64,000 nt of DNA from an uncultured Verrucomicrobiota bacterium (GCA_964444425.1 CAYUHK010000004.1:12837-76836); one strand, 5' to 3'. Shown: positions 1,659 to 46,762, counted from the stretch's first letter. The notes: generated by a model from the sequence alone, not told the origin. Made by a program: numbers and translations.

Positions 1659-2444
1659 TCATCGCAAGGTTTTCAGAAAACCAGCTATCCTTTTTAACAC
1701 TGCGACCTCAGCGGCGTCGGCGCCTTCATATTCCACCGAGAGAAAACCACGAAAGCCGGCTTGCGCCAGGATGGAGTGAATGCGCGCCCAATCAAAATTC
1801 TGATCGCGGCCATCCGCGAGAACATCGAAGAATTTAGCATGCACGATGGCGGCGTGGGGCGCACAACGCTGAATGGATTGATAGGTCTGCGGGCCCACCT
1901 GGCTGGTTGGCGGAAAATTACCCGTGTCTAAAGTGAATTTAAAAAATTCGTTGTCGACATCGCGCTGCAGCTTGAGCAGCTGATCGGCAGTGGTGCCGCC
2001 ATGGTTTTCCATCGCCATGACAATGCCTTGGCGGGCGCCCAACTCAGCGATTTGTTTGATCGCCTGGAGCACCTTTTGATATAGGCTGCTGCCGCCAGCT
2101 TCCAGCTCGGCGCCGCTGCCGCAGAAAAAGCGTACGCAGGGCGCTCCCAAGAAGGCGGCTACCTCCACCCAACGGGCGATCCCTTCGATCTGCTTCTGGC
2201 GTTCGGCGTCGTCATCAACTGTTAAGTGGCCATCGGCGGAAACCATTGCAATGGTCAAAAAATTATCGCTGCAGGCCTTTTTAAGTTTAATGAGATAATC
2301 GCGCTGTGTGCTCGGAAAATGACAGCCTAATAATTCCACTCCATCCAGGCCCAAGGCGGCACATTCCTTCAGCCATTGTATTTGATCCATAGAACCTTTT
2401 TCGAAGGCGCGGTGATAACTCCAAGAGCTACAAGATGTCTTCAT
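1659..2444 (-). CDS. sugar phosphate isomerase/epimerase (xylose isomerase-like TIM barrel)
   Basis: 261-aa ORF with the typical AP-endonuclease-2 / xylose-isomerase-like barrel pattern (LDGVEL, HAKF, VEYEG). Confidence 0.7.
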   Translation of the reverse strand: MKTSCSSWSYHRAFEKGSMDQIQWLKECAALGLDGVELLGCHFPSTQRDYLIKLKKACSDNFLTIAMVSADGHLTVDDDAERQKQIEGIARWVEVAAFLGAPCVRFFCGSGAELEAGGSSLYQKVLQAIKQIAELGARQGIVMAMENHGGTTADQLLKLQRDVDNEFFKFTLDTGNFPPTSQVGPQTYQSIQRCAPHAAIVHAKFFDVLADGRDQNFDWARIHSILAQAGFRGFLSVEYEGADAAEVAVLKRIAGFLKTLR

Positions 2445-6221: not shown

Positions 6222-7577
6222 TCAAATGATGATGGCGCCGCCGGCCTGCAATAGGCGCCTGGTTTCGGCTGGGTTGACGCTGGCCACGCCGTGTTGACCC
6301 TTCCAGGCCTGCCAGGCCGCCACCCCGGCCGCTTCGCCGCATTGGTTCAGGTTGACCATGACGCGGACGGCGCCGAAGGCATCTCGATCCGCGTCCAGCA
6401 TGCGGCCAGCAACCAGGACATTGAAAGCCTTTTTGGGTATCAGGCAGCTCAGCGGTATCTGGTAAAATGGCAGCACCTCGCCCTCCGGCAGCCAGCGCTC
6501 GGCAGAAAGGAGTTGGCCGGCCCGATAAACGCGCGCTGTGCCATTCAAGGCTTTAAGGGAAATGGTTGCATCGGTGTCGTTATGAATGTCCACTGGGTAG
6601 GTGCCGTTGGCGATGGCATCGGGAAAGCGGCGTCCAGCCAGCAACTCTTCGCCGCGGAGCGTTCCTACGGAATAAATATGCAGACCTTCGCGAATGCCGA
6701 TTGCCGCTGGCAGAGTCTCTAGGCAGATCTGGCGCTGGGGAAATTCCATCCGGAGCATTGCCAGAATGGCTTTGATCTGGCGGCGGGCGGTAAGTTCCGC
6801 CCGGGTGATTTCATCGGCGTCGTTGCAGTCGCATTGCAAGACTCGCGTTCCAGCCAGCATATGGAGCTGGCTATTGGGAATTGACATATCCCAGTAATAG
6901 CCGCAGGGCAGGTCTGGCAGCTTTTCTCGATATTTATCCATGCATGCTTGCAGATTAAATCCGTCTGGGAAGGACCAGCCACTAAACCGGGCGCAGCTGG
7001 TTGGCGGCTGAGGATGCTCGGGGCGCCGCATGGCTAGGCCGGCGCTGCGCGTCAGCACGCCATCACCGGAAGCGTCGATAAATACTTTGGCACGAATGGC
7101 GTAACGGCCCGATTTATCCTCAGCGACAATCGCCTGCACCTGGCCGGGAGCGGCCATGACTGCCTGCGAAAAGGAGGTCTGTAGGTACAAAGTAATGTTT
7201 TTCTCGGCCATCACCATGGCATCGAGTTCCAGGGTGAGCTCCTCGGAATTCAAGCGGATACCATAATAGTCGGTCGGTTGACGGAAGGTGCTGCAGGCCG
7301 CGGTCTTCTCCAGGCGCTCAAGAGTTTCGAAGGTGAGCCCGCCGATGATCTGGCGGCTGCGCGTGATATCAAACAGCGAATGCCACATGCCGACCAGGCC
7401 CAAGGTGGCGACGCCGCCCAGCCGGTTCGACTTTTCCAGCAGCACAACCTTCGCGCCCAAGCGCGCCGCCCGCAATGCCGCAAACACGCCAGTGCAGCTG
7501 CCGCCGACCACGCAAATGTCGGCTTCAGTTTTGACAGCTAGCGTCTCGGGCGGCAGTAAAATTTTATTTTTATTCAT
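6222..7577 (-). CDS. FAD-dependent oxidoreductase (FAD_oxidored family)
   Basis: 451 aa with N-terminal dinucleotide-binding motif VVGGSCTGVFAALRAARLGAKVVLLEK. Lies 30 nt downstream of the btuD-like gene on the same strand. Confidence 0.7.
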   Translation of the reverse strand: MNKNKILLPPETLAVKTEADICVVGGSCTGVFAALRAARLGAKVVLLEKSNRLGGVATLGLVGMWHSLFDITRSRQIIGGLTFETLERLEKTAACSTFRQPTDYYGIRLNSEELTLELDAMVMAEKNITLYLQTSFSQAVMAAPGQVQAIVAEDKSGRYAIRAKVFIDASGDGVLTRSAGLAMRRPEHPQPPTSCARFSGWSFPDGFNLQACMDKYREKLPDLPCGYYWDMSIPNSQLHMLAGTRVLQCDCNDADEITRAELTARRQIKAILAMLRMEFPQRQICLETLPAAIGIREGLHIYSVGTLRGEELLAGRRFPDAIANGTYPVDIHNDTDATISLKALNGTARVYRAGQLLSAERWLPEGEVLPFYQIPLSCLIPKKAFNVLVAGRMLDADRDAFGAVRVMVNLNQCGEAAGVAAWQAWKGQHGVASVNPAETRRLLQAGGAIII

Positions 7578-7607
7578 GTTAGCCTGATTTATTTCTATTG
7601 ATTAATT

Positions 7608-8912
7608 TCATCCTAACCCAGGTTGACTGGGGCGGCCCTGGGGCATGAGCGCGGCGGCCAAGCTGGCCAGGGCCTCATGGACTTGGCTCCAAGGTCGCGC
7701 GCCATTTTGAAGCATTATTTTAATGCGCGCGGAAGCGGCCTGGTCGGCGGTATAATCGCGGCCAGCCAGGTCGCGATCGTTGATCAGCACGATTTTACCG
7801 CTCCGCAGGGCGCTGGCGGCTATGTCCAGATTGACCAAGTTACCAGGTCCGAAGGGCACCTGGCAGACTATCACGGCAGCGGCAGCGGCGGCCAGCCGCT
7901 GAGCCTCTGCTAAGGCGGCCGGCGCGATTGGTGAAAATGGTTTTTCGAGGGCTTGCTCTGCGCCTAGCGCGGCGGCAGTTTGGGCGTCGGAATCCAACTG
8001 GTTAAGCACGCCGCAGGAGAGGCGGTAGCCGCTCAGCGAAAGTCGCCGCAAGAGCTCAGCGCCGCTGCCGCCGCCAGCAATCAAATGCACGCGCGCGTTG
8101 GTGTCACCGGCTGATTGGGGCAAGCGCCGCGAGGGCGCCACGAAGAGGCCGCCGGTTTGGTTATCCTGTTGCACGTGCAGGTCGCAGCGATAAACCTCTC
8201 GCAGGATGTCTTTCTGCAGCACCGCCGCCGGCGGGCCATCGGCGGCCACGCGGCCTTGATCTAGCAGGACCAAGCGTTGGCAGAACTCGGCGGCCAGGTT
8301 TAAATCGTGGCTGGTCATAAGCACGGTTACGCCTTGTTCGCGGTTGAGGCGTTCAACTATTTGCATGATTTCCAGCGAATGGTTTAGGTCGAGATGGGTG
8401 GTAGGTTCGTCCATCACGATCAGGCGGGGTTGCTGGGCCAGGGCCATGGCTATGATGGCGCGTTGCTTTTCGCCGCCGCTCAGGGCATCGAGGGGACGGT
8501 CGCCTAGCTCGTGCACATCTGTTTGGGCCATGGCGCGTTGGGCCACCTGGCGGTCGGCGGCGGAGGGTTGTTGCCAGGGTTTAAGCAGAGCTGCGCGGCC
8601 CATCAAGACCAGCTCGGCAACGCTATAGGCCATGGGAGTCTTGAGTTCCTGGGGCACTACCGCCACCAGCCGGGCGCGCTCGGCGGCGCGCAGCTTATTT
8701 AGATTTTGACCGAACAAGCGCACCGTGCCGCTGCTTGGCGGCAGCAGGCCGGTAAGCACGCGCAGCAAAGTGGATTTGCCGGCGCCATTAGGACCTAGCA
8801 GGGCGACGCTTTCGCCGGCAGCCACACTCAGGTTAAGGTTTTGAAATATCAGAGCCGTGCCATAGCCGGCGCTTAATTGTTGGAGTTCGCAAGCCGGTTT
8901 CATTCCAGCCAC
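7608..8912 (-). CDS. ABC transporter ATP-binding protein (BtuD/FecE-like) with ~170-aa C-terminal extension of unknown function
   Basis: Walker A GPNGAGKST, ABC signature LSGGEKQR, Walker B LIVMDEPT and H-loop in the first ~260 aa. The C-terminal ~170 aa (HLIAGGGSGAELL...VIVCQVPFGPGNLVNL...) match no motif I recognise. Confidence 0.8.
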   Translation of the reverse strand: MAGMKPACELQQLSAGYGTALIFQNLNLSVAAGESVALLGPNGAGKSTLLRVLTGLLPPSSGTVRLFGQNLNKLRAAERARLVAVVPQELKTPMAYSVAELVLMGRAALLKPWQQPSAADRQVAQRAMAQTDVHELGDRPLDALSGGEKQRAIIAMALAQQPRLIVMDEPTTHLDLNHSLEIMQIVERLNREQGVTVLMTSHDLNLAAEFCQRLVLLDQGRVAADGPPAAVLQKDILREVYRCDLHVQQDNQTGGLFVAPSRRLPQSAGDTNARVHLIAGGGSGAELLRRLSLSGYRLSCGVLNQLDSDAQTAAALGAEQALEKPFSPIAPAALAEAQRLAAAAAAVIVCQVPFGPGNLVNLDIAASALRSGKIVLINDRDLAGRDYTADQAASARIKIMLQNGARPWSQVHEALASLAAALMPQGRPSQPGLG

Positions 8913-9916
8913 CCATGTTTGCGGCGTTGGCGCAAGAGCATCAAAAAAAATGGTCCGCCGATCAAGGCGGTGATGACGCCTACCGGTATTTCCCGTGGCG
9001 CCAAGGCCGTTCTAGCTAAGGTATCGCAAAGGACCAGGAACCAGCCGCCGGCCAGGGCCGCGGCCGGCACCAGGCGGCGATGGTCTGGGCCAACCAGGCT
9101 GCGCATGTAATGGGGTACGATCAAGCCGACAAAGCCGATTAAGCCGGCCAGGCTTACCGCCGCGGCCGTGGTCAGGGTGGCCAGACCCAATCCCAAGCCA
9201 ACGGCCAACTCGGTGCGGATGCCGAGATGGTAGGCCATTTCACGGCCGAGAGTTAAGGCGTTGAGGTCGCGTGCCAGGCCCCAGATGCCCAGCATGCCGA
9301 TGGCTATCAGTAGGCTACTGATCAATAGCAACCTGGATGACATTACCTGCAGATTGCCCAGCAGCCACCAGGTTATGCTGTGCAGGCCTTCGATCGGGGC
9401 TAAGGAGATGATCAACATCAAGATGCTTGAGCACATCGCGCTGATGATAACGCCGCTAAGCAGCAGCCCGTAAATGGATGGAGCGCCGCCGTGGTGTGCC
9501 AAGAGCACCACCAGGCTAAGGGTTAAGATGGCGGCGCCGAAGGCGCTCAACGGCAGCACTCCAGTGATGGCGGCCAGACCCGATACGATCGCCAGGGCGG
9601 CGCCGAGTCCGGCGCCGCTGCTCACTCCCAGGATATAGGGGTCGGCTAAGGGGTTGCGCAATAGGGCCTGAAGAACCACTCCGGAACTGGCCAGGCCAGC
9701 GCCAACCACAAAGCCGGCGATCACGCGGTGGAGGCGCAGGGCAAGGATGGCGCGGCCTATGGCGTTGTGCCAATCCAGCTGGCTAAATCCGCCGGCGCCG
9801 AGCAAGAGGCTGGCGCCCAGGATGAGAGGCGTCAGCGTCAACAACAGCCAAACCAGCGCCGGCCGCCGCCAGCTCGCTGGGGGCATATTTTTTTTACAGC
9901 TCATGGCTAATTCCAA
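8900..9916 (-). CDS. FecCD-family ABC permease (BtuC-like)
   Basis: 338-aa polytopic membrane protein with typical FecCD/BtuC sequence (LLRNPLADPYILGVSSGA). Overlaps upstream and downstream genes, consistent with operon coupling. Confidence 0.85.
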   Translation of the reverse strand: MELAMSCKKNMPPASWRRPALVWLLLTLTPLILGASLLLGAGGFSQLDWHNAIGRAILALRLHRVIAGFVVGAGLASSGVVLQALLRNPLADPYILGVSSGAGLGAALAIVSGLAAITGVLPLSAFGAAILTLSLVVLLAHHGGAPSIYGLLLSGVIISAMCSSILMLIISLAPIEGLHSITWWLLGNLQVMSSRLLLISSLLIAIGMLGIWGLARDLNALTLGREMAYHLGIRTELAVGLGLGLATLTTAAAVSLAGLIGFVGLIVPHYMRSLVGPDHRRLVPAAALAGGWFLVLCDTLARTALAPREIPVGVITALIGGPFFLMLLRQRRKHGWLE

Positions 9917-9927
9917 TTAGTTTGCTT

Positions 9928-10950
9928 TCAGTTTAGCGCAGCGGGTTTGTAAAAGCAGCATTTTTTAGTGTCGCGCCGTGCCGCGCCGGCGCCTAAGGGG
10001 CCGGGCTTGAAGGGGCTTTGGCCACTTGGGCGGATATCATCCTCTATGCATTGGCGCAGGGCGGCAATGCCTTCTAGCACCCTGGGACCCGGGCGCAAAA
10101 TGGCGTTATTATCCAAGCCGCCATAAACGCGCTGATTTTTTACCGCTTGGCTGGCGGCCCAGCCTATTTGTTTGGAGAGGCCCCAGGCCGACTCCTGGTT
10201 CTCGCGCTCAACCTGAGCCATATCAAGGCAAATGATGATATCCGGATTTTGTTTAAGCACCCATTCGGGTGCAACGGTGAAATAATCGCGCGCGGTTATG
10301 CTGTTGCCAATATTGCAGCCGCCAGCTAAATCAATCAGGTCGGCCACAAAGGAACCTTGGCCCACCGTGGTAAGGGGATCGTTCCAAATCCTTACGAAAA
10401 CCGTGGGCGCTGTTTGGCCGGCCAGCTGGCGTTCCGTCCTTGCGCTGCGGAGCTCGGCCAGGCCCCTTTGAATTGTTTCCGCCAAGGCTTGAGCCTTGGT
10501 TGGCGTATGGGTGAGGTCGCCAACCTGGCGAATGGCTCGGGGTATATCGTCTAACTTGGCACAGGCGATCTGCTGGTGGCGCAGGCCGATTTGTGCGAAC
10601 ATGTCTCTCAGGGCTTTATCCTCCAAATCAACTTCCAGGACCAGGGTCGGCTGCAGCCGCAGCAGGGCATCTAGGGTCGGCGCGCCAAAGCCGCCGACGA
10701 TCGGGATGGCCTTTACTTGATCGGGTGGGTAATCGCAAGCGCTGGTGCGACCGACCAATTGGGTTCCGGCGCCGATGGCATAGATGATTTCCGTCAAGCT
10801 AGGCGCCAGCGAGATCACCCTTGGGGCTGATTGATCACTTGAGGGCGCCCGCGCCGGTTGACAACTGGTCAATAGGATTAGGCCTATCAAGAGCAGAGCG
10901 TTGGCAACAGCTCGGGCTACTCCGGCGCTTAGGCTAGAAGCTAAATGCAT
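9928..10950 (-). CDS. periplasmic binding protein (BtuF-like, cobalamin/iron-complex family), lipoprotein
   Basis: 340 aa with signal peptide and lipobox LLTSC. PBP class III fold motifs (VISLAPSLTEIIYAIGAG..LVG). Sits between the FecCD permease and cobS. Confidence 0.8.
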   Translation of the reverse strand: MHLASSLSAGVARAVANALLLIGLILLTSCQPARAPSSDQSAPRVISLAPSLTEIIYAIGAGTQLVGRTSACDYPPDQVKAIPIVGGFGAPTLDALLRLQPTLVLEVDLEDKALRDMFAQIGLRHQQIACAKLDDIPRAIRQVGDLTHTPTKAQALAETIQRGLAELRSARTERQLAGQTAPTVFVRIWNDPLTTVGQGSFVADLIDLAGGCNIGNSITARDYFTVAPEWVLKQNPDIIICLDMAQVERENQESAWGLSKQIGWAASQAVKNQRVYGGLDNNAILRPGPRVLEGIAALRQCIEDDIRPSGQSPFKPGPLGAGAARRDTKKCCFYKPAALN

Positions 10951-11788
10951 GAATCACCTTTGCATAGGGGGCCAGGGCTGCCAGAGTGAATAGCAGGATG
11001 CACTCGCTGGTTTCGTTGGCCAGGCCCAATAGATCTCCCGTTACCCCTCCGAAAGAGCGTCGCATCCAACTAGCCAAGGGCCAGCCCAACAGGCCAGCCA
11101 GAAGAAGGATTAAGCCGCCCGCCCAACCTAGCAGCAACAGGCTAAGCAGCAACGCCAGGCCGGCGGCACCAAGCAAGTGTTTGGGCCGAGCCTGTTTAAC
11201 GAAAGCGCCGGCGCCGCCGCCTTCGGCGCGAGCATAGGGCAAGGTTACCGCCAGTAGCACCATGATCAGGCGCGAGAGTATAAAGGGTATGGGCATCCAG
11301 GTCCATTGGCCCAGTTGGACCAATTGGGCTAGGGCGATTGTTTTAAGCAGTAAGGCCGCGGCTATGGCTGTAGCGCCAAAGGCCCCCAGATGGTGATCCT
11401 TCATTATGGCCAGCATGCGCTCACGCGGGCGCCCGGGGGCATAGGCATCGGCGCTATCGCCCAGGCCATCGAGATGCAATCCGCCGGTGATCCAGGCCAG
11501 CAGAATCACGCCAGCGGCGGCCGCGCCGTTGGGCCAGCCGAGCCAAGCACCGATCAGCCAGGTTAGCCCGGTCAATAATCCGCCGATCAGGGCACCGACC
11601 AGGGGGAAAAATATCAAGGCGTCGGTTAGGCGGGTTGAGTCTTGGCCTGGCAGCCTGAGAATGGTTAAGGTTTTACATGCCGTTATTAATCCGTTCAGCA
11701 GCATAGCTAAACTCCCGCTCAGTTGAGCCAATTCGCCCTCCAGCTTATATTGAAGCAGGGCCTGCTTGCAAACCAGAAAGTCGGCCAA
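10934..11788 (-). CDS. cobS: adenosylcobinamide-GDP ribazoletransferase (cobalamin synthase)
   Basis: Polytopic membrane protein with CobS signatures (GGLHLDGLGDSADA, GGVTGDLLGL). The true start may be the internal Met at about 11704 (MLLNGLITA...), based on comparison with E. coli CobS length. Confidence 0.8.
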   Translation of the reverse strand: MADFLVCKQALLQYKLEGELAQLSGSLAMLLNGLITACKTLTILRLPGQDSTRLTDALIFFPLVGALIGGLLTGLTWLIGAWLGWPNGAAAAGVILLAWITGGLHLDGLGDSADAYAPGRPRERMLAIMKDHHLGAFGATAIAAALLLKTIALAQLVQLGQWTWMPIPFILSRLIMVLLAVTLPYARAEGGGAGAFVKQARPKHLLGAAGLALLLSLLLLGWAGGLILLLAGLLGWPLASWMRRSFGGVTGDLLGLANETSECILLFTLAALAPYAKVIHAFSF

Positions 11789-11799
11789 GCCCCAGCGGC

Positions 11800-12864
11800 T
11801 CAGGCGCCCGGGGCGATGCCGGCCTCAGCAAAACTGGCCATGTGATTATAGATTGCTAAGGCATCCTCGATTATTTGTATGGCGATGACTGCGCCGGTGC
11901 CTTCGCCCAGGCGCAGACCTAGGTCCACTAACGGCCGGAGATTCTCTCGCGCAAAAAAGATCCGGTGTCCTGGTTCGGCGCTCATGTGGGCGAAGAAAAG
12001 ATAATCCCTTACGGCGGGACAAATCCGCATGGCCGCCAGCGCGCCGGCACTGGCAATGAAGCCATCTACCACCACCGGGCGGGCCTGGGCGGCGCCCCCC
12101 AAGCATAGGCCGCAGATGCCGGCTATTTCTAAGCCACCCAGCGCCGCTAGCGTTCCCAGGGCGTCTTGGCAAAGGGGGCGGTTGCGCGCGATGGCCTGAT
12201 CCACCACTTCTATTTTATGATTGACACCGGAGACGTCGAGGCCGGTGCCCGGGCCAACGGTTTGGCTGGCCGGCAGGTTTAAGAAGGCCGAAAACAAGGC
12301 GGCCGCTGAGGTGGTATTACCGATGCCCATGTCGCCGGTAGCCAGCAGGGCAATGCGTTGCCGGGCTGTCTGCTCGGCCTGTTTAATGCCCACGGCTATG
12401 GCTTTTAAGGCCTGGTCGGGAGTCATGGCAGGCCCTTGCGCGATGTTGTCGGTTCCGCGTTTAACATTGCATCTTTGCAGGCCCTTGACCCGGCCCAGAT
12501 CTTGGGCCATGCCGATATCAATGATTTTAATTTTGACGCCGGCTTGGCGAGCCAAGACATTGATGGCCGCAGCGCCACCCAGAAAAGATTTTACCATCAG
12601 AGCGGTAACGGTGGAGGGATAGGCGCTGATGCCTTCCTGGACTACGCCATGGTCGCCGGCGAACACGAAGACATGCTTGCTTGCCAGGCGCGGGCTTTCT
12701 TGCGGGAGCATGGCTGCGCAGCGCGCGGCGATCTCCTCGAGATATCCCAGACTGCGGCGCGGCTTGGCCAGGGCATCCAGGCGCTGAAAGGCCCGCGCCA
12801 GCGCGGCCGGGGCTATCGGTCGGATGCGGCTGATGGTTTGTTCGAGCAAAGCGGCGGAGCGCAT
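11800..12864 (-). CDS. cobT: nicotinate-nucleotide--dimethylbenzimidazole phosphoribosyltransferase
   Basis: 354 aa with CobT-family motifs (FAGDHGV, GDMGIGNTTSAAA, GGLEIAG). Confidence 0.85.
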   Translation of the reverse strand: MRSAALLEQTISRIRPIAPAALARAFQRLDALAKPRRSLGYLEEIAARCAAMLPQESPRLASKHVFVFAGDHGVVQEGISAYPSTVTALMVKSFLGGAAAINVLARQAGVKIKIIDIGMAQDLGRVKGLQRCNVKRGTDNIAQGPAMTPDQALKAIAVGIKQAEQTARQRIALLATGDMGIGNTTSAAALFSAFLNLPASQTVGPGTGLDVSGVNHKIEVVDQAIARNRPLCQDALGTLAALGGLEIAGICGLCLGGAAQARPVVVDGFIASAGALAAMRICPAVRDYLFFAHMSAEPGHRIFFARENLRPLVDLGLRLGEGTGAVIAIQIIEDALAIYNHMASFAEAGIAPGA

Positions 12865-12908
12865 AGGCGGTTTTCTCTTTATGACATGGCCTCCATGAGC
12901 ATAGCAGC

Positions 12909-13442
12909 TTATTTTGGCAAGGCGCCTTTCAAGGCCAGCGGCAGACCGGCTACTACCAGCACCACATTGGTTGCCAGCGCTGCCAGATCTTGATTGAACC
13001 AGCCAGCCAGGTCGCGGAAGCTGCGGCCCAATTCATGTTCCGGCACAATGCCCATGCCGACTTCATTACTTACCAAAATCAGGTTTTGCCGGCAGGCTCC
13101 CAGGGCCTCCAGCAGGGTCTGGCGCCTTTTAGGATAAGAGTCCAGGCCTTCTTTTAAAATGACGTTGGTTAGCCAGAGGGTTAGGCAATCTACCAGCAGG
13201 CCATCGCCATCGGCGCTAGCCAGGGCCGCTGCCAGTTCCAAAGGTTCCTCGCGACAGCGCCAGTGCGCGCCACGCGCTTGGCGATGGGCCTGAACCCGCC
13301 GGGCCATTTCGGCATCCTTAACCTCGGCAGTGGCCAGGTAAAGGGGCCGCTGCCAATGACGCTCGGCCAAGCGCAAGGCATAGTTGCTTTTCCCGCTGCG
13401 GGCGCCGCCCAGCACCAACACGCGCATTAAGTTAGCAGGCAT
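12909..13442 (-). CDS. cobU: bifunctional adenosylcobinamide kinase / adenosylcobinamide-phosphate guanylyltransferase
   Basis: 177 aa with P-loop GGARSGKS at the N-terminus, typical CobU/CobP size and sequence. Confidence 0.85.
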   Translation of the reverse strand: MPANLMRVLVLGGARSGKSNYALRLAERHWQRPLYLATAEVKDAEMARRVQAHRQARGAHWRCREEPLELAAALASADGDGLLVDCLTLWLTNVILKEGLDSYPKRRQTLLEALGACRQNLILVSNEVGMGIVPEHELGRSFRDLAGWFNQDLAALATNVVLVVAGLPLALKGALPK

Positions 13443-14284
13443 TGTGATAACCTCTTTAGCGACTGCTGCAAAGCCTTGGCATTAAATAGCTCCAGTGTCA
13501 GGACGCCGTTAAAATTGTCAATAGAATTCAAAAACTGCTGCAGCCAGCCAGCCGGCCGGTCGGGCAGGGGTTGATGGTCGCGCCCGGCCTTGACGCCATG
13601 CAAATGAATCACTCGGGTGCGCTCGGCATAGCCTTGGTAATGGCGGCAAAGGGCGCCGCCGGCCAGCTGGAGATGGCCGGTATCCAGGCAGACTCCCAGT
13701 CCAAAAAGTTCTAGAAAAACCTCGCACCAGGCAAAGGGGTAAGCCAAGTTTTCCAGACAGAGTTGCCCGGGCATATCCAGCTGATCGCAGATAGCAGGGA
13801 GCAGCTGGGCGATGCGGCCCTGCCAGTTTTTGACGCTGCTAGCCTTGGCCTCAGGCGCTATGCCCTCTAGATGCAGGATATAGGCATAGGGCCGCAGCGG
13901 CCTAACCCGCTTGATGATTTTGATGATCTGGCCTAGCAGCTCCCTGCGTTCGGCTGGCTGGGCGGAGCCCAATTGACGATCGATCGGCAAGTGAATGGTG
14001 TAGGTCAAGGAATGTTCGGCGGCGAGTTGGCCCAGCAGCGCGATGGTCTTAGGCGTTGGTATAGCCTGGCGGGTTTTCGATTCAAAAAGGATTAACTCGA
14101 TATCATCCAAGCCCGGTGCCAAGGCCCGCACGTTAGTCAATATGTCAGCTGGGTAGACGTAGGAAGGCGCGCCCAATCGAAAATGGTGTTTAGCCGGGAA
14201 GGGCGGCAAGGGCAAAAATTGCCTGGCTGTATTCGAGCGTGGGCCGGGCACGGTTTTTTCAGATTCCAACATCTGGCTGATCAA
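13427..14284 (-). CDS. cbiR: xylose-isomerase-like TIM-barrel protein, candidate cobamide-remodelling phosphodiesterase (CbiR-like)
   Basis: 285-aa AP-endonuclease-2/xylose-isomerase-like barrel (HLEG, LDTGH, IHLHG metal-ligand-like motifs). First gene of the cobU-cobT-cobS-btuFCD operon, overlapping cobU by 16 nt. The cbiR assignment is by family plus context only. Confidence 0.5.
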   Translation of the reverse strand: MISQMLESEKTVPGPRSNTARQFLPLPPFPAKHHFRLGAPSYVYPADILTNVRALAPGLDDIELILFESKTRQAIPTPKTIALLGQLAAEHSLTYTIHLPIDRQLGSAQPAERRELLGQIIKIIKRVRPLRPYAYILHLEGIAPEAKASSVKNWQGRIAQLLPAICDQLDMPGQLCLENLAYPFAWCEVFLELFGLGVCLDTGHLQLAGGALCRHYQGYAERTRVIHLHGVKAGRDHQPLPDRPAGWLQQFLNSIDNFNGVLTLELFNAKALQQSLKRLSQCLLT

Positions 14285-14596
14285 ACCCTGGGATTAATTT
14301 TATAGATTGAAAGGATAGGGCCCTTCCAGCTGATAGTGTAAGCCGGGTCGGCTGGGATAGCGCTGGCCCGTCCGCATAGGCATTCCGATCAAAAGCATTT
14401 TAAGGTATTGAGTAAAACAGGTCCCCGCGCCGCCCAAATCACGCTCAAGGTTTCTTACATATTGCAGGGCTAGGTGCGAGTGCCAAGGCAAATTAACAAA
14501 CAGCAGCCAGCAGAGCAAGGGCTTATAGGGGCCTATCAAGCCAGGCGCGACTAAGAGGGTTTAAATAGTTTTAAGGCCATGCTATAGTTTAGCCCC
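14285..14596 (-). promoter_or_regulatory. long 5' leader of the cobamide operon; candidate cobalamin riboswitch (unverified)
   Basis: 312-nt non-coding leader between divergent tatD and the cbiR-like gene. Contains GC-rich helices and a CACUAUCAGCUGGAAGGGCC segment loosely resembling the GCCACUG...GGGAAGGC region of cobalamin riboswitches. A covariance-model search was not possible here. Confidence 0.3.
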
Positions 14597-15409
14597 ATGA
14601 ATATATCGCCGCCAGCGCCAAGCCATTTATTCGACAGCCATGTTCATTTTCAAGGCTTGCTTGAGAAAAACAACCTGGCTGCTGCTGCCATCATAGTTCG
14701 CGCGGCGGCCCAGGGGGTTGAGCGCATGATAGCTGTAGGCGGCGCGCCGGACAGCAATCAGCAGGCCTGCGACATTGCTCGGGAGCATCCGCGCCAAGTC
14801 CGCGCCGCGGTTGGTATTAATCGAGATCAGGCCCTTACGGATTGGTCGGAGGCTGCTCTAGAGCAATTGGCTTTGGCTCCGGAAACGGTGGCCTTGGGAG
14901 AAATCGGTTTAGATTTTCATCATGAATCCGCCACGCGCGCCGCGCAGCTGGTCTTGTTTGAGCGCATGCTAGCGCTAGCCCGCCAGCAGCGCTTGCCGGT
15001 TATTATTCATAGCCGTGCGGCGGAAGCAGCTACTAGCGCTTTATTGGAGCAACATGTTCGGGCTTGGCCTGGTGCACCCGATCAGGTTGGAGTACAGCAT
15101 TGTTTCAGCGGCAGTCGTGATTTTGCTGAACGTTTGTTGGAGCTTGGTTTTTTTATCAGTTTCAGCGGCATAGTTACTTTCAAAAACGCTGGCGCCTTAC
15201 GGGAGATAGCCGCTATGATTCCAGCTGAGCGGCTGCTCATCGAAACCGACGCGCCCTGGCTGACGCCGGAGCCCTGGCGCGGCCGGCCCAATGAGCCGGC
15301 CAATGTCCATCGGGTGGCCGAGGAACTGGCCCGTATTCGCAATCAGCCGCTTAGCGAGATAGCGCTGATCACCTATCGCAACGCCGTGCGGCTCTTTGGC
15401 ATTGAATAG
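14597..15409 (+). CDS. tatD: TatD-family metal-dependent hydrolase/DNase
   Basis: 270 aa with HVHF metal-binding start, ETDAP motif and typical TatD length. Confidence 0.85.
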   Translation: MNISPPAPSHLFDSHVHFQGLLEKNNLAAAAIIVRAAAQGVERMIAVGGAPDSNQQACDIAREHPRQVRAAVGINRDQALTDWSEAALEQLALAPETVALGEIGLDFHHESATRAAQLVLFERMLALARQQRLPVIIHSRAAEAATSALLEQHVRAWPGAPDQVGVQHCFSGSRDFAERLLELGFFISFSGIVTFKNAGALREIAAMIPAERLLIETDAPWLTPEPWRGRPNEPANVHRVAEELARIRNQPLSEIALITYRNAVRLFGIE

Positions 15410-17070: not shown

Positions 17071-18036
17071 ATGCGTATAGTTTTCATGGGCTCGGCTGAG
17101 CTGGCCTGTTGCTCACTGGATAGTTTACTAGCCAGTCCGGCGGACAGGCTGGTGGGGGTGATCGCTCAGCCAGATCGACCCAAAGGGCGCACCCTGCAGC
17201 TGGCGGCATGTCCGGTGCGCGCCCACATCGGTCGGCGCCAGATTCCGGTTTTAACCCCAGTATCCGTCAATACGCCTGAGAGCCAGCAAGCGATAAAGGC
17301 GCTGGCGCCGGACTTGATCGTGGTGGTGGCCTACGGACAAATTTTAAAACCAGCCCTGCTGGATATTCCGCCGCGCGGCTGCGTCAATCTGCATGCATCT
17401 TTGTTGCCGCGCTATCGCGGCGCCGCGCCGATCCAATGGGCCATCGCGCGTGGGGAGCGGCGCACCGGCGTGACCACCATGTTTCTCAATGCGGCCATGG
17501 ATGCCGGCGATATCATTGATCAGATCGAGGAGCCGATCCATGTCGATGATACGGCTGGGACTCTTCATGAGCGCCTGGCCAGTTTAGGCGCTCAACTGCT
17601 GCTTCGCAGCCTGGATGCTATTCGTCAAGGCACTGCCCGCCGCCTAGTCCAGGATCATGCCGCCGCCACCTACGCACCCAAGCTTAAAAAGAGCGATGGC
17701 TATCTGGACTGGCGGCGGCCGGCTATTGAGCTTTATAACCGCATTCGCGGGTTTAACCCATGGCCGGGCTCTTATTTTGAACTGGGCCGGCCAGGTTTGG
17801 GCAGTGGCGCGATCAAGGTACTGCAAGCCAGCGTCGTGCCGGCGCCGGGCGCGGCGCGGGGCCAACCCGGGGAAGTGCTGGCCCTATCGTCGGCTGGGCC
17901 GGTGGTGCAAACCGGGGAGCAAGCTTTATGCCTATTGGAACTACAACCAGCTGGTCGTAAGGCCATGAGCGCAAACGCCTTTCTTTGTGGCCATCCCTTA
18001 AAGGTTGGCACGCGCCTGGCCTTAATGAAAACCTAA
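17071..18036 (+). CDS. fmt: methionyl-tRNA formyltransferase
   Basis: 321 aa starting MRIVFMGS, with formyl-transferase motif NLHASLLPRYRGAAPIQWAI and a C-terminal Fmt domain. Confidence 0.9.
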   Translation: MRIVFMGSAELACCSLDSLLASPADRLVGVIAQPDRPKGRTLQLAACPVRAHIGRRQIPVLTPVSVNTPESQQAIKALAPDLIVVVAYGQILKPALLDIPPRGCVNLHASLLPRYRGAAPIQWAIARGERRTGVTTMFLNAAMDAGDIIDQIEEPIHVDDTAGTLHERLASLGAQLLLRSLDAIRQGTARRLVQDHAAATYAPKLKKSDGYLDWRRPAIELYNRIRGFNPWPGSYFELGRPGLGSGAIKVLQASVVPAPGAARGQPGEVLALSSAGPVVQTGEQALCLLELQPAGRKAMSANAFLCGHPLKVGTRLALMKT

Positions 18037-19703
18037 TCGGTCGGAGCAGTTTCTTGGATGTTGGCTGCCCAAGGCTGGGCCCCCAGTTGTCTCAAGCGCT
18101 CAGCTTCATCGATCACCTGGCCGGTGGTTGGGTCTAGGGCTAGACAAGCCCCATCAATAATGGCAGTTGGCGTGGCGCTGCGGGCGCCGCCGGCGCCAGC
18201 CAGACCGGGGGCGTCGAGCAGACCCCGTTGGACTGCTTCATTAAGAACGGTTGGGTTGCCCCAAGGATCCGGATCGGTCGGCGCAAGTTTTTTGATGGCC
18301 TGCAGGAGCAAGCGTGTTTCGGATACGAGCTTGGTTTGGCGTTGCTGCAGGGCCTGATCGAGAGTGCAATCGGGCAGGCCATCTAAGGCGTTCTGCAAGG
18401 TCCCGCGGGCGATTTCACAGGATTCGATAACTTCATCGGCTGTGGCAGCGTGATCGCCTTCACTAAAGCCTACCACGTGCAGGATATGCGGCCGCATGGC
18501 TAACGAGATTACCGCAGTAGCGGCCATTTGGCCCTTGGCGATATTGCCATGGGGTGAAAGGCTTGCCAATCCAGCGCGCACTTGGTTATAGACGGTGAAA
18601 TGCTCATCTTCCAGGCTATGGATGAGTTCCTGTTTGGCTAGCATCTTGGCTAAATCCATGCGTGGGGTTGTTCCCGGCGGGGTATTGAACATATATTGCG
18701 AAACATAGTGTTTCACACCGCAACGCTTGGCGTTGTAGGCGGCTAGGAAGGCGGTAGCCACTGCTACAGTATCATGAGCGTTGCGCAGGCTCCATTGGTG
18801 CGCTTCATTGACTTCGACTGGCACGGCATGCTGGGCGTACCAGCGAATCGCTTGCAAGTTTTCGCGCAGCGCCGCCAGCAGCGGCCGTTGGGAACGACCA
18901 TCCAATTGGCTATACCAGCTTAAGGGGATAGCGCCCCAGGCAATCTTAATGGTGCGCAGGCTCATCTCCGCCCAGCGCTCCAAATCATTGGTGCCGCTAT
19001 AACAGCGCAAGAGGGGGTGATTACCGCAGCGCGTGGCGTTATAGATGTCTAGCAAGTCGGCAGGTTGACGGAGCGGCACGCCGCCGGCGCCGGCCTGGGC
19101 GGGGTTCATCTTGGCTGGGCGAAAAAAATATTCCTGGGCGTTTTGGTCCGGGCCCAGAGACAAAACATCTAGCGCCGCGGCCGCGGCGATGCGCGCGGCT
19201 CCGCTGACAGTTTCTGTCAGGCTGGGGCGACCATAGTGATGCCGCAGCAGCGGCATGGGGTAGCTTTGGGCGATGCGCGCGCTGAGGCTTTGGGCCGGAA
19301 TAGCGGGGCTGGTGGCGGCCGCGCCGCCGCGTAAAAATTCAGATACTTCATTCAGGCTTTCGGTGCCGGCAAAGCTGCGTTCGAAAATGCCGGAGCGCTC
19401 GGCGACTGCAGCCACCGGCGGCGTTCCGCCAAAGACCAAGCGGGTTGAGCTGTCAGCCGCCTGTGGCAGCAGTTGCTTGAATTCGGCCAAGAGTTGCGCG
19501 GCCGTTTCCGGTGTAAGTCGGTAACTAATGGCGAGCAGAGCCGGTTTTTGTTTAATCAATTGCTCAACCAGTTGTTGGGGAGACAGGCGTGTGCCCAGGA
19601 AGCGCGTGAGGTAGCCCTCGGCCGCGGCCAGGCGCAGAAAGCCTTGAATCCCGGCAACATGGACGCAATCGCCAATAGTGGCGCCTAAAACCAAGCCCTT
19701 CAT
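18033..19703 (-). CDS. cobalamin (B12)-binding-domain protein with large C-terminal domain of unknown function
   Basis: 556 aa. N-terminal ~130 aa resemble a Rossmann-like B12-binding domain with the DxHxxG motif (GDCVHVAGI). The remaining ~420 aa match no enzyme family I can name. Start overlaps the stop of the upstream opine-DH gene (ATGA at 19700-19703). Confidence 0.55.
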   Translation of the reverse strand: MKGLVLGATIGDCVHVAGIQGFLRLAAAEGYLTRFLGTRLSPQQLVEQLIKQKPALLAISYRLTPETAAQLLAEFKQLLPQAADSSTRLVFGGTPPVAAVAERSGIFERSFAGTESLNEVSEFLRGGAAATSPAIPAQSLSARIAQSYPMPLLRHHYGRPSLTETVSGAARIAAAAALDVLSLGPDQNAQEYFFRPAKMNPAQAGAGGVPLRQPADLLDIYNATRCGNHPLLRCYSGTNDLERWAEMSLRTIKIAWGAIPLSWYSQLDGRSQRPLLAALRENLQAIRWYAQHAVPVEVNEAHQWSLRNAHDTVAVATAFLAAYNAKRCGVKHYVSQYMFNTPPGTTPRMDLAKMLAKQELIHSLEDEHFTVYNQVRAGLASLSPHGNIAKGQMAATAVISLAMRPHILHVVGFSEGDHAATADEVIESCEIARGTLQNALDGLPDCTLDQALQQRQTKLVSETRLLLQAIKKLAPTDPDPWGNPTVLNEAVQRGLLDAPGLAGAGGARSATPTAIIDGACLALDPTTGQVIDEAERLRQLGAQPWAANIQETAPTD

Positions 19704-20797
19704 TCAGTGGTCTCCTCGCCGATAGCCAGCAGGCGCAGGCTGCGCACCGACATATCTTTGATGCCCAGGCGTTCAACCGTGCGGCCTTCTTGCCAGAAAT
19801 CTATGCCGCATAAAGCGCTGGCCATTTGGATCACCGCCCGGATGGTTGGCGTGGGGACTTTTAGCATCTCTCCCAAGCTGGCGATAGGCACTAGGCTCAT
19901 GGGCACGTCTTCGGTTAGGTAACGGGTGTGGATGCCGGTGGGGGCCATGATGCCCCGATAGCCAGGATTAGCGTGCATGGCATGCCAGATATCCGGTCCA
20001 TTGGCTTCATAGGCGAAGTGCATCCATTGTCGGGCGGTCATGGCTTGAATGCCAATGGCCTCGGCCACGGCGATCCGCTCGGCATCCACTTCCTCCAGCA
20101 CTTGAGCCACCGAAGGGCTGCAGCCTTGCAAATAAAATTGGAATTCCGAATCATCTTCAATCCAGCCGGCATTAAGGACCGTGATAGTGGGGTGAAATAC
20201 CGCGCCGATGTTATTGAGGCTGGTTTTGAAAACGTTATCTCCGGGAACGAACTGAGGATAGGCTGCCTTCAGCAGGCTCAGTACCTCCGGTATGCGATGG
20301 GCATTGATCGCGGCAACCGGAATAGCGTTTTTAATGCGAAATATACGTACCTGGCCGGGGTTATTTACGCGGGAGGCGTAGATCAATGTTTGGGCCTCAG
20401 CGATGGTTACATCAGCCTTAATGCCTTCAGCAGTTAAGACTTGCCTGAATTCCAGGGCGCCAAAGGTGCGTCCCGGGTTCAAAACCACCACTTGCCCATC
20501 GGCCAGGTGGGGTCCAATAGTTTTAGCCATATCGTGGTGGGCGGTAGCCGGCACCACGACCATCAAGATATTAGCGCCTTGCAGGGTTTCAATGGGATCG
20601 GTGCTGGCTATGGCGATCTTTGCAAAGCCTTCCACCTCGCCTTCCAGAGTGATGCCGCCGGTCATCTTGATAGGGAGCAGACGCTCGGGCGAGCGATTAT
20701 ATAGGCGCACCTCGAAACCCATCAGGGCGAGGTGTCCGGCCATGGCTAGGCCGCCATGGCCGGCGCCGAGCACGGCAAAAACCGGTTTAGCTGTCAT
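19700..20797 (-). CDS. NAD(P)-dependent opine dehydrogenase family protein (octopine/nopaline DH-like)
   Basis: 365 aa with N-terminal GxGxxG (AVLGAGHGGLAMAGHLA) and C-terminal octopine-DH-like helical domain. Confidence 0.75.
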   Translation of the reverse strand: MTAKPVFAVLGAGHGGLAMAGHLALMGFEVRLYNRSPERLLPIKMTGGITLEGEVEGFAKIAIASTDPIETLQGANILMVVVPATAHHDMAKTIGPHLADGQVVVLNPGRTFGALEFRQVLTAEGIKADVTIAEAQTLIYASRVNNPGQVRIFRIKNAIPVAAINAHRIPEVLSLLKAAYPQFVPGDNVFKTSLNNIGAVFHPTITVLNAGWIEDDSEFQFYLQGCSPSVAQVLEEVDAERIAVAEAIGIQAMTARQWMHFAYEANGPDIWHAMHANPGYRGIMAPTGIHTRYLTEDVPMSLVPIASLGEMLKVPTPTIRAVIQMASALCGIDFWQEGRTVERLGIKDMSVRSLRLLAIGEETTE

Positions 20798-24837: not shown

Positions 24838-25998
24838 ATGGAAAGCTTAAAGCAGCAGAGCGCCCGCCAGTGGCGCGGCGGAGTTTGGGCGGCCATTATA
24901 TTAGCGCCGATCCTAGCCATAGCCTGGCTGAAGCTTGCGGCCCCAGTGCTCCCAGCTGTTCAACTTACTCGAACCATAACCGACCTGGCCGGGCGAGAGG
25001 TGCTGATTCCGAAGGAGGTTAAGCGTCTTATTGCTTTAGGCCCCGGCGCACTGCGGCTGGTGGTATATCTTGGCGCGACCGATAAAATTGTTGGCATCGA
25101 AGACATGGAATACCGCATGGCCCGCAGTCTGTACGAGCGACCTTACGCCCAGAGCCTTAAGGAAGCTTTTTTTGCCTTGCCGGTCGTCGGCGCCGGCGGC
25201 CCTGGAGTGCTTCCTGATTTCGAGAAAGTATTGATGTGCCGCCCAGATCTGATCGTTGCCGTGAGCATGGCGCCGGGCCAATTGGATAATATCCAGGCGA
25301 AAACCGGCGTCCCGGCGATTTACCTTTCCTATGGCGAATTAGGCGTCTGGCGCGATCAGGCTCGCCGTTCCTTGGCGCTGTTGGGTGAAGCCATTGGCCA
25401 AAGCGCGCGTGCGGCGGCCATCAATGCTTATGTGGCATTTTTGGAACAAGACCTGGCCCGACGGGTTCAAGGGATTGCCGAGAACGCCAAACCTCGGGTA
25501 TATTTTGGAGGGGTTTCATATAAGGGCTCGCAAGGCCTGGCCAGCACGGAAGCCGATTATTCTTCTGGTCGCCTAGTTGGGGCGCGCAATCTGGCCGATG
25601 GACTGGGCCTGCGCGGCCACTTTTTAGTGGACAAGGAACAGATCTTGCTGTGGGATCCCGATTATATCTTTGTTGATATTGCCAGCCGTGTGATTCTGGA
25701 TCAAGAGTTTGAGCGCAACCGGGAATACTATCAGCTGCTAAGCGCAAGCCAAGCAACCAGGATTTATTCATTATTGCCTTATAACTATTACAACACCAAC
25801 ATCGAATTGGCTTTGCTCAATGCTTATTTCATAGGTAAAACTCTTTATCCTGAAAGGTTCGGCGATATTCAGATGGAAGAGCAGTCAGCAAAGATTCTGG
25901 GGACATTTCTGGGCGTTCAGTTTGATCGGCAGATGCCGGAGATTCCGGCTTACCGGCCCTTACGCTTTAGCGAGGGTTCCGCGCCGTTATGGAGATGA
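24838..25998 (+). CDS. ABC transporter periplasmic binding protein (iron-complex/cobalamin class, PBP-III)
   Basis: 386 aa with N-terminal signal/TM segment and PBP-III style sequence (LIALGPGALRLVVYLGATDKIVGI). First gene of the PBP-FecCD-ATPase set. Confidence 0.75.
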   Translation: MESLKQQSARQWRGGVWAAIILAPILAIAWLKLAAPVLPAVQLTRTITDLAGREVLIPKEVKRLIALGPGALRLVVYLGATDKIVGIEDMEYRMARSLYERPYAQSLKEAFFALPVVGAGGPGVLPDFEKVLMCRPDLIVAVSMAPGQLDNIQAKTGVPAIYLSYGELGVWRDQARRSLALLGEAIGQSARAAAINAYVAFLEQDLARRVQGIAENAKPRVYFGGVSYKGSQGLASTEADYSSGRLVGARNLADGLGLRGHFLVDKEQILLWDPDYIFVDIASRVILDQEFERNREYYQLLSASQATRIYSLLPYNYYNTNIELALLNAYFIGKTLYPERFGDIQMEEQSAKILGTFLGVQFDRQMPEIPAYRPLRFSEGSAPLWR

Positions 25999-25999
25999 T

Positions 26000-27067
26000 A
26001 TGCCATCAATCAATCTGCCAGAACAATACGCTCGGCACCTCAAGCGCAAGCAGCTGGCGGGCTGCGCCTTGCTGTTATTGATTTTTATCGCCAGTTTATT
26101 TTCCTTAGGCGTCGGGGCCTATCCTATCGGCCTAGATGACATGGTGGCTGCCTTGACCGGTCGCGCTGCCGCGCCTACCCAGCATGTTTTTTGGAGTATT
26201 CGCCTGCCGCAATTATTGGCGGCGCTGCTGGCCGGAGCCAGCCTTGGACTAGCAGGGACAGCGCTGCAGAACGTGCTTAGAAATCCACTGGCCGCGCCGA
26301 TCACCTTGGGGATCTCTCAGGGGGCGGTTTTTGGCGCCGTGTTTGCTATTACCATATTAGGCGCTGGCAGTGCCGTTGCCAGCGGGACGAGTTTTGCTAC
26401 GCCTTGGATTCCATATAGCATTGTGCTTTGTGCCTTTGCTGGGTCATTGATTACGGTGGGCACGTTGGTGTGTCTCTCCACGCTGCGGGCGCTCTCGCCC
26501 ACGGCGCTTATCTTGGCCGGTGTGGCCATCAGCGCCTTCTTTGGGTCGGCCACCATGCTGCTGCAATATTTCGCCACCGATATTGAGATAGCCGCGGCGG
26601 TTTTTTGGACCTTTGGCGACCTTAAGAATGCGCAATGGCCGCAGTTGGCTGTGATCGCCGGCATACTGCTGCCAGCCGGCTTGTATTTTCAGCGGCGCGC
26701 CTGGCATTTCAATGCGCTGATTTGGGGGGACGATACCGCCCAAAGCTTGGGCATAGGGGTGCGCTCGCTGCGGCTGACTGCGCTGGTGCTGGCTGCCTTA
26801 GCGGCGGCGGTAACCACAGCGTTCATGGGCATCATTGGTTTCGTTGGCCTGATCGCGCCACATGTGGCGCGCATGATCGTAGGCCAAGACCATCGTTTTT
26901 TGTTTGCTTATTCGGCTCTGGTCGCTGGCCTGCTGCTGCTGCTTGCCGACTTGCTGGCCCGGACGATATTAGCGCCAATAGTTTTGCCGGTCGGCATTCT
27001 GACTTCCTTTGCCGGCGCGCCGCTTTTTCTATATCTGCTGATGAAGCATAGAGAGATCCGAGCATGA
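26000..27067 (+). CDS. FecCD-family ABC permease
   Basis: Polytopic membrane protein with FecCD motifs (LRNPLAAPITLGISQGA). GGAG RBS lies 5 nt upstream of ATG 26000. The six-frame ORF is open from 25922, overlapping the PBP gene end. Confidence 0.8.
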   Translation: MPSINLPEQYARHLKRKQLAGCALLLLIFIASLFSLGVGAYPIGLDDMVAALTGRAAAPTQHVFWSIRLPQLLAALLAGASLGLAGTALQNVLRNPLAAPITLGISQGAVFGAVFAITILGAGSAVASGTSFATPWIPYSIVLCAFAGSLITVGTLVCLSTLRALSPTALILAGVAISAFFGSATMLLQYFATDIEIAAAVFWTFGDLKNAQWPQLAVIAGILLPAGLYFQRRAWHFNALIWGDDTAQSLGIGVRSLRLTALVLAALAAAVTTAFMGIIGFVGLIAPHVARMIVGQDHRFLFAYSALVAGLLLLLADLLARTILAPIVLPVGILTSFAGAPLFLYLLMKHREIRA

Positions 27068-27915
27068 TTTTACGGGTAAACGATCTGTATTTTTCGTATC
27101 GCGGCATGGATGTCTTACGAGGGCTCACCTTCGAGGTGCCTTCAGGTTGTCTCACAGCCATCCTGGGGGAAAATGGTTCAGGGAAAACGACCTTGCTGAA
27201 GACCATCAATCGTTTGCTTAAACCACGGCGCGGCACAGTCTTTCTGGATGACCAGGCGACAACCGCCTTGCCCGGAGCTGCTCTTGCCAGATACTTTGGC
27301 TATATGCCTCAACGCCAGGAGCTGGTTCATTGCAGTGTCTATGAAACAGTCTTGCTTGGCCGCAAAAGCGCCAGCAGCGGGCGCACCAGCGCCGTAGATC
27401 TGGAGAAGGTTGCGGCCATCCTGCGTTTGGTGAATCTGGAGAAGCTAGCCATGCGCTCCATAGCCGAGCTCAGCGGCGGCGAACTACAGAAAGTTATCTT
27501 GGCTCGCGCCTTGGCTCAGGAGCCCAAGGTTCTGCTGCTGGATGAGCCGATTAACCACCTGGATCCAGTCAATCAGCTAGAGGTGATGAGCTTGCTGCGC
27601 GCCGTAACCCGTGATCTTGACATCGTCAATCTGCTTGTTACTCATAATCTAAACAACGCGCTACAGTTTGCAGATCGCTTTATTCTGCTCAAGGCTGGCG
27701 CGGTTTGGGCTGCTGGCGGCAGAGAGGTGGTTACGCCAGCCGCCATTCGGGAGGTTTTCCGTATAGATGTTAAGATCGAGCAGGTGGCTGGAGTTCCCGT
27801 GGTGATTCCGATACAATGCGGCCAGCGGCCTCATTGGCATTTCGTAGAATCGGGTGGCTTGCGTCAACACACGCACATGGTTGATGGCCATATATATGAC
27901 CATCAGCATGGTTAA
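27064..27915 (+). CDS. ABC transporter ATP-binding protein (FecE/BtuD-like)
   Basis: Walker A GENGSGKTT, signature LSGGELQK and Walker B LLLDEP. Start overlaps the permease stop (ATGA). Confidence 0.85.
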   Translation: MILRVNDLYFSYRGMDVLRGLTFEVPSGCLTAILGENGSGKTTLLKTINRLLKPRRGTVFLDDQATTALPGAALARYFGYMPQRQELVHCSVYETVLLGRKSASSGRTSAVDLEKVAAILRLVNLEKLAMRSIAELSGGELQKVILARALAQEPKVLLLDEPINHLDPVNQLEVMSLLRAVTRDLDIVNLLVTHNLNNALQFADRFILLKAGAVWAAGGREVVTPAAIREVFRIDVKIEQVAGVPVVIPIQCGQRPHWHFVESGGLRQHTHMVDGHIYDHQHG

Positions 27916-45766: not shown

Positions 45767-45803
45767 ATAATGTTGAACGAATCAGAGGGCCTAAGCAGGC
45801 TCG

Positions 45804-46739: not shown

Positions 46740-46762
46740 TATTTTATATTGTTATTAAGACT

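Follow-up and report, generated by a model that had tools for sequence, protein, structure and literature searches.

A putative cobamide-remodelling gene cluster led by a CbiR-type gene and joined to a BtuFCD-like importer in an uncultured Verrucomicrobiota bacterium

Gene content of the cluster

We analysed a 64,000-nucleotide (nt) stretch of DNA from an uncultured Verrucomicrobiota bacterium (GCA_964444425.1, CAYUHK010000004.1:12837-76836), hereafter the window, with positions counted from its first letter. Seven co-oriented minus-strand genes at 7608-14272 make up a core cluster of cbiR, cobU, cobT, cobS and the genes of a BtuF/BtuC/BtuD-like importer, and we consider it likely that this operon couples corrinoid import to lower-ligand exchange by way of a CbiR-type phosphodiesterase. 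Together with a downstream gene for a flavin adenine dinucleotide (FAD)-dependent oxidoreductase, the cluster forms eight consecutive minus-strand open reading frames (ORFs) spanning 6222-14284, whose order and strand are those given by an initial annotation made from the sequence alone, and each ORF has its expected family match in Pfam and NCBIfam (Table 1).

Pfam assignments used the maximal ORF coordinates, while start positions were refined from gene calls on near-identical public contigs (L002-L004), several of them falling inside the maximal ORFs. With the refined starts, three of the six core junctions are overlaps (cbiR/cobU by 16 nt, cobS/btuF by 17 nt and btuC/btuD by 4 nt) and the other three are short gaps (cobU/cobT, 44 nt; cobT/cobS, 95 nt, or 11 nt with the TTG start; btuF/btuC, 23 nt, or 11 nt with the TTG start). 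That is, the overlaps of 4-17 nt first described for the whole cluster hold for half of its junctions, and the cluster is compact throughout. An AT-rich gap of 30 nt separates btuD from the FAD oxidoreductase gene. The seven core genes presumably form a single transcription unit.

Table 1. Coordinates of the cluster, its leader and the gene downstream
Feature	Position	Strand	Length	Start	Family or comment
Leader/promoter region between divergent tatD and cbiR	14273..14596	-			No Rfam match; fold z-score +1.06
cbiR	13427..14272	-	281 aa	ATG 14272; maximal ORF from TTG 14284	AP_endonuc_2 (PF01261)
cobU	12909..13442	-			PF02283
cobT	11800..12864	-			PF02277 (DBI_PRT)
cobS	10934..11704	-	256 aa	ATG 11704; maximal ORF from TTG 11788	PF02654
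btuF-like lipoprotein gene	9928..10950	-			PF01497 (Peripla_BP_2)
btuC-like permease gene	8900..9904	-	334 aa	ATG 9904; maximal ORF to 9916	PF01032 (FecCD)
btuD-like gene, whole	7608..8903	-	431 aa	ATG 8903; maximal ORF to 8912	ABC_tran
btuD ATPase domain	8115..8903	-			PF00005
btuD C-terminal Rossmann-like domain	7608..8114	-	~170 aa		PF27219, MJ0874-like
FAD-dependent oxidoreductase gene	6222..7577	-			PF12831 (FAD_oxidored)

Assignment of the lead gene to the CbiR family

The lead protein (residues are numbered on the 281-amino-acid (aa) window protein) scores 240.6 bits against the NCBIfam curated equivalog NF041277 for CbiR, whose cutoff is 105, with residues 35-281 covering profile positions 1-249 of 249, and 51.9 bits against PF01261 (threshold 31.1); no other NCBIfam family matches it at E <= 0.001. 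The family is of modest size, since an exhaustive search of 1.84 billion representatives gave 274 clusters at E <= 1e-30 and 686 at E <= 1e-10.

Conservation was measured on an alignment of 23 homologs and on a broader one of 66 representatives at 30-46% identity. Across the 66 representatives H94, H134, E174, H200, H223, H233 and E261 are invariant, and D98, D197, D232 and C195 are at least 90% conserved; window CbiR has them all, including every His, Asp and Glu among these candidate metal ligands, whose inspection the initial annotation had suggested. When the CbiR family profile was compared with sequences in the PDB, it matched MJ1311 (3wqo) at E = 1e-7 and endonuclease IV at E of about 1e-3. 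H94, H134, E174, D197 and H200 align onto identical residues in the HD, H, E and D..H motifs of endonuclease IV, positions that we take to be its zinc ligands H69, H109, E145, D179 and H182, and in the profile alignment MJ1311 has identical residues at every one of the conserved CbiR His, Asp and Glu positions listed above.

The AlphaFold 2 model of the protein, with a predicted local distance difference test score (pLDDT) of 91.9, is an eight-stranded (beta/alpha)8 triosephosphate isomerase (TIM) barrel of the xylose-isomerase-like kind, for which the best solved Foldseek matches are the ketose 3-epimerase-like 3wqo and UlaE, with template-modelling (TM) scores of 0.71-0.73 (0.71 for 3wqo) and identity of at most 19%. 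Neither by sequence nor by fold was a solved CbiR structure found in the PDB. W182-C183 is invariant within the subclade of window CbiR, and Cys195 is near-invariant across the family; we can only speculate that these residues may relate to the oxygen sensitivity and dithiothreitol requirement of the Akkermansia enzyme.

The window offers an internal control in a second AP_endonuc_2 TIM-barrel gene (1659-2444, minus strand, 261 aa), whose generic Pfam score is above that of CbiR. Its product weakly resembles inosose dehydratase and sugar epimerases; it gave no match to NF041277 and only E = 0.12 when compared by profile with the CbiR family, and we rejected it as a second CbiR. Genes encoding a Sel1-repeat protein and a polysaccharide deacetylase adjoin the gene. 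The lead protein itself, given its NF041277 match and the different behaviour of this epimerase-like paralog, does not group with the sugar epimerases. Equivalog score, conserved His/Asp/Glu residues, TIM barrel, linkage to cobU and the fusions described below agree that the lead gene is CbiR-type, as had been proposed.

Kinship to the characterised enzyme, Amuc_1679 of Akkermansia muciniphila, was judged through the NF041277 model and the family-wide invariant residues; Amuc_1679 is absent among the 120 homologs listed, and the peptide-pattern genome scan did not pick up Akkermansia. With the CbiR homolog encoded at locus L032, in the Lentisphaerae metagenome-assembled genome (MAG) AS06rmzACSIP_375, window CbiR shares 47% identity; a homolog from the AS06rmzACSIP_375 isolate appears in the list of Mok et al. 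(mBio 2020) at 29% identity to Amuc CbiR (PMC7733943), so we regard the window protein as a distant but recognised relative.

Nucleotide-loop assembly genes

The three loop-assembly proteins each score above their own curated equivalog cutoff: CobU, the bifunctional cobinamide kinase/cobinamide-phosphate guanylyltransferase (PF02283, 1.1e-59; NF004469, 202.5 bits, cutoff 161), CobT, the nicotinate-nucleotide:base phosphoribosyltransferase that activates the lower ligand (PF02277, 2.7e-124; TIGR03160, 416.7 bits, cutoff 319.3), and CobS, the cobamide-5'-phosphate synthase/adenosylcobinamide-GDP (guanosine diphosphate) ribazoletransferase (PF02654, 3.1e-48; TIGR00317, 125.3 bits, cutoff 110). 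CbiB, CobD and CbiZ have no gene in the cluster. De novo corrin-ring genes, which the initial annotation had reported as missing, were found neither in the larger ORFs of the window (about 38.0-39.6 and 63.0-64 kb being unscanned) nor in the 10 kb past its left end. A stretch of 64 kb is too little to judge the corrinoid-scavenging lifestyle deduced from their absence, since de novo producers can have CbiR as well, as 26 Akkermansia strains do (PMC7733943).

The importer and the C-terminal domain of its ATPase

The importer is of the FecCD type (type II), and its context and a fusion described below point to corrinoid specificity. The binding protein (PF01497, 2.6e-26) belongs to cluster A and passes the TroA_like subfamily model, scores 75.8 bits against the BtuF equivalog NF002894 (cutoff 234), and has a lipobox-like LLTSC behind a hydrophobic N-terminus, as read by eye from the sequence. 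For the permease (PF01032, 8.5e-82) the best NCBIfam model is BtuC, NF007081, at 243 bits (cutoff 461). For the ATP-binding cassette (ABC) ATPase (PF00005, 3.8e-33) it is NF007082, corrinoid ABC transporter ATPase, at 280.8 bits (cutoff 537), with a match that covers residues 7-366 and so reaches into the C-terminal domain; against NF002981 the same protein scores 130.9 bits (cutoff 281).

Beyond the length of a plain ABC ATPase, this BtuD-like protein runs on for about 170 aa, an extension that had been overlooked in the initial annotation and that a precomputed assignment places in PF27219. The domain carries the conserved motifs GGGSG, LNxxDSD, PFSPI, PFGPGN and RDYT, and its AlphaFold 2 model (pLDDT 91.8) has a Rossmann-like fold; we dropped the assignment of a function from this fold, the PDB matches being weak (TM about 0.4) and to generic NAD(P)-binding Rossmann domains.

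Some 10 kb away from the cob genes, the plus strand at 24838-27915 encodes a second importer of the Peripla_BP_2/FecCD/ABC_tran kind. FhuB/BtuC and heme ATPase models score best for its components, none of them reaching the cutoff; the ATPase is without an MJ0874-like C-terminal domain, and the importer has neither cob neighbours nor a riboswitch.

Related loci and natural fusions

A scan of species-representative genomes gave 80 loci with cbiR, none of them from the same species. The nearest lie in Verrucomicrobiota MAGs (58-59% identity), followed by Kiritimatiellia, Lentisphaerae, Fibrobacterota, Desulfobacterota and Chloroflexota. As counted by tblastn with the window proteins on these loci, which were gathered by CbiR peptide patterns from this clade so that the frequencies are not family-wide estimates, cobU stands directly 3' of cbiR on the same strand in 67 of the 73 that have enough downstream sequence, cobT or cobS lies within 10 kb of cbiR in 38 of 80, btuF or btuC does so in 13 of 80, and the BtuD C-terminal domain is found near cbiR in three of 80. 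This near-obligate pairing of cbiR with cobU is as expected, because cobinamide-phosphate is the substrate of the guanylyltransferase half-reaction of CobU.

Linkage of cbiR, cobU and btuFCD recurs at L007 (btuF and btuC only), L008, L019, L044 and L088. One close relative, L008, repeats the full order cbiR-cobU-cobT-cobS-btuF-btuC-btuD, and in another, L007, the order runs as far as btuC, beyond which btuD gave no hit. At L008 a gene for a 23S-rRNA-intervening-sequence protein (PF05635; 5450-5836) is inserted between cobU and cobT; this gene and the unassigned ORFs inserted in the L007 and L008 operons were rejected as cobamide-related.

Four natural fusion proteins join CbiR to a partner: CobU-CbiR (P0228), CobS-CbiR (P0287), CbiJ-CbiR (P0164) and ABC-ATPase-CbiR (P0267). 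The last, of 694 aa (L088, 2118-4202), consists of BtuD, the MJ0874 domain and CbiR, with the domain placed between ATPase and CbiR; it is 48% identical to window BtuD over 421 aligned residues, C-terminal domain included, after which a linker of about eight residues leads into the CbiR barrel in an uninterrupted ORF. The gene order on its contig is btuF-btuC-[btuD-MJ0874-cbiR]-cobU-cobS-cobT. P0267 is known from this single metagenomic contig, and an assembly artefact is possible. The CbiJ-CbiR fusion, together with CbiR in de novo-producing Akkermansia strains, shows that CbiR is not restricted to scavengers.

Leader, downstream gene and other features of the window

We rejected a cobalamin riboswitch or other structured leader ahead of cbiR on four grounds: neither RF00174 nor any other Rfam family gave a gathering-score match in the window, nor any match at E <= 10 within 14100-14700; the 324-nt leader folds no more stably than shuffled sequence (z-score +1.06); its sequence is conserved in same-species contigs only; and no cobalamin riboswitch precedes cbiR in 10 related loci.

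At the other end of the cluster, the FAD oxidoreductase (PF12831, 256.9 bits) may be co-transcribed with the core genes; a scan of the 30-nt gap turned up nothing resembling a terminator. Its gene does sit where the initial annotation had put it, but it is no member of a conserved module: orthologs lie near cbiR in none of the 80 related loci, on which ground we rejected it as a functional partner, and three loci hold paralogs at 25-28% identity and in varying orientation.

Elsewhere in the window, the 556-aa product of a minus-strand gene at 18033-19703 has a sub-threshold N-terminal match to the B12-binding domain (27.8 bits, cutoff 32.1) and a non-canonical GDCVHVAG motif, and matched no NCBIfam family; the start of this gene overlaps by 4 nt the end of an upstream Octopine_DH/glycerol-3-phosphate-dehydrogenase-like gene (19700-20797). 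A BatA-BatD-like (aerotolerance-type) row on the plus strand at 44777-54438 encodes a MoxR-type AAA ATPase, a DUF58 protein, several von Willebrand factor A proteins and BatD. The sole RNA gene is a tRNA-Ala(CGC) at 39078-39153 (plus strand), at about whose position the 117-kb related contig SRR8925716_24642 stops.

Discussion

The cluster suggests the following route. The BtuF/BtuC/BtuD-like importer would bring complete cobamides or cobinamide into the cytoplasm, where CbiR, as a metal-dependent enzyme, would hydrolyse the phosphoribosyl bond of the nucleotide loop to release cobinamide-phosphate and the free alpha-riboside of the unwanted base. CobU would guanylylate cobinamide-phosphate to cobinamide-GDP, its kinase activity also permitting the use of imported cobinamide; CobT would produce the alpha-ribotide of the preferred base, CobS would join the two into a new cobamide 5'-phosphate, and a phosphatase encoded elsewhere would complete the cobamide. 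Because CbiB and CobD are neither needed for this route nor present, the cluster amounts to a minimal set of genes for cutting and rebuilding the loop, with an importer attached. Remodelling by loop cutting and rebuilding with CobU, CobT and CobS, as the initial annotation had suggested, is thus supported by the CbiR model, the conserved residues, the linkage and the fusions, while the CbiR activity, the choice of a preferred base and the other steps are predicted from the family assignments and the linkage.

Several observations weigh against this route. Neither a CobC-type phosphatase nor an adenosyltransferase was found in the window, nor a B12 riboswitch; BtuF, BtuC and BtuD all fall under the Btu equivalog cutoffs; window CbiR is only distantly related to the characterised Akkermansia enzyme, and biochemical work on CbiR is confined to Akkermansia; and the linkage counts come from loci gathered with the peptide patterns of one clade.

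The lack of a CobC-type gene in operon and window would be accounted for if the CbiR homolog served loop assembly and not remodelling, as a phosphoesterase substituting for CobC, and CbiR homologs do nearly always adjoin cobU, where cobC often sits; in a variant of the same idea it would be a proof-reading or housekeeping hydrolase in a de novo producer, with which the CbiJ-CbiR fusion and the CbiR of de novo-producing Akkermansia strains (PMC7733943) would agree. We think both improbable: the only characterised CbiR cuts the phosphoribosyl diester, yielding cobinamide-phosphate and alpha-ribazole (PMC7733943), the window protein passes the equivalog model of that enzyme, and the linkage and the fusion to an importer of corrinoid type are what one would expect of an enzyme acting on complete cobamides after their uptake.

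Corrinoid models score best for the permease and the ATPase, the cbiR/cobU/btuFCD linkage recurs across loci, an ATPase of this kind is fused to CbiR in P0267, and the second importer nearby has neither the C-terminal domain nor cob neighbours. A role of the importer in heme or siderophore uptake, with no more than a common transcript linking it to the cob genes, is therefore very unlikely, although the top NCBIfam match of its binding protein is the heme receptor IsdE, none of its three components reaches a Btu equivalog cutoff, and a second similar importer lies 10 kb off.

That the lead gene encodes an ordinary sugar-phosphate isomerase/epimerase in an incidental cob neighbourhood, as might be gathered from the label "sugar phosphate isomerase/epimerase" that several homologs bear in their sources and from the ketose 3-epimerases among its closest solved folds, is scarcely credible when sugar-enzyme NCBIfam models go unmatched at E <= 0.001 and the CbiR model scores 240.6 bits, identity to any solved epimerase stays at or below 19%, the true epimerase-like paralog at 1659-2444 behaves differently, and neither cobU adjacency in 67 of 73 loci nor the fusions can be incidental.

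Within the favoured route, import followed by lower-ligand exchange, cobamide cleavage might also be physically coupled to import, with the MJ0874 domain of BtuD docking or regulating CbiR, so that a cobamide would be cut on leaving the transporter and handed directly to CobU. We put this forward tentatively, as a doubtful extension; the hints toward it are the BtuD-MJ0874-CbiR fusion (P0267 at L088), the overlapping cbiR-cobU pair and the CobU-CbiR fusion. If true, such coupling would explain how the cell spares its own finished cofactor from CbiR, a self-destruction problem left open by Mok et al. (PMC7733943), and could also explain how the operon works without a B12 riboswitch.

Among the closest known systems is the Amuc_1679 locus of Akkermansia muciniphila MucT, where a gene of the AP-endonuclease-2/xylose-isomerase fold is likewise co-oriented with cobU, cobT and cobS near transport genes, and whose CbiR cleaves the phosphoribosyl bond of adenosylcobalamin, methylcobalamin and other cobamides to cobinamide-phosphate and an alpha-riboside, requiring anoxia, reductant and metal (PMC7733943). 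The window locus differs in having no cobDQ or cbiB, in a cbiR that comes first and overlaps cobU, and in a full BtuFCD-like importer within the same packed unit, its ATPase bearing the extra MJ0874-like domain; its host, moreover, is an uncultured environmental bacterium of the Planctomycetes-Verrucomicrobia-Chlamydiae (PVC) group and not a gut Akkermansia. Salvage based on CbiZ (Halobacterium, Rhodobacter sphaeroides, Dehalococcoides) also sets a loop-opening hydrolase beside a corrinoid ABC importer and loop-assembly genes, but CbiZ is an unrelated amidohydrolase that cuts an amide bond to give cobyric acid, after which CbiB and CobD are needed, whereas CbiR cuts a phosphodiester, so that CobU, CobT and CobS suffice; the window cluster is without CbiZ. 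With endonuclease IV and MJ1311 the lead protein shares the TIM barrel and the aligned His, Asp and Glu residues, and endonuclease IV is likewise a phosphodiesterase; their similarity is marginal (family profile E = 1e-7 to 1e-3), however, their substrates are DNA abasic sites or sugars, and the CbiR clade adds the near-invariant Cys195 and, in the window's subclade, W182-C183.

A system of this kind is already described, and the current understanding of cobamide salvage is unchanged by it; annotation in the style of the Prokaryotic Genome Annotation Pipeline would already call the lead gene CbiR. Some potential for novelty lies in the evidence that couples the importer ATPase, with its C-terminal domain, to CbiR. 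That 25% of CbiR homologs adjoin putative transport genes, and the idea of uptake-coupled remodelling, are already published (PMC7733943), and the BtuD-CbiR fusion makes this idea directly testable. The near-universal cbiR-cobU pairing suggests a hand-off of substrate between the two enzymes. The locus presents a clean minimal pathway in an environmental PVC lineage, without the linker-rebuilding cobD and cbiB of the Akkermansia locus, and it lends support to the idea of lower-ligand remodelling as a widespread process beyond the gut.

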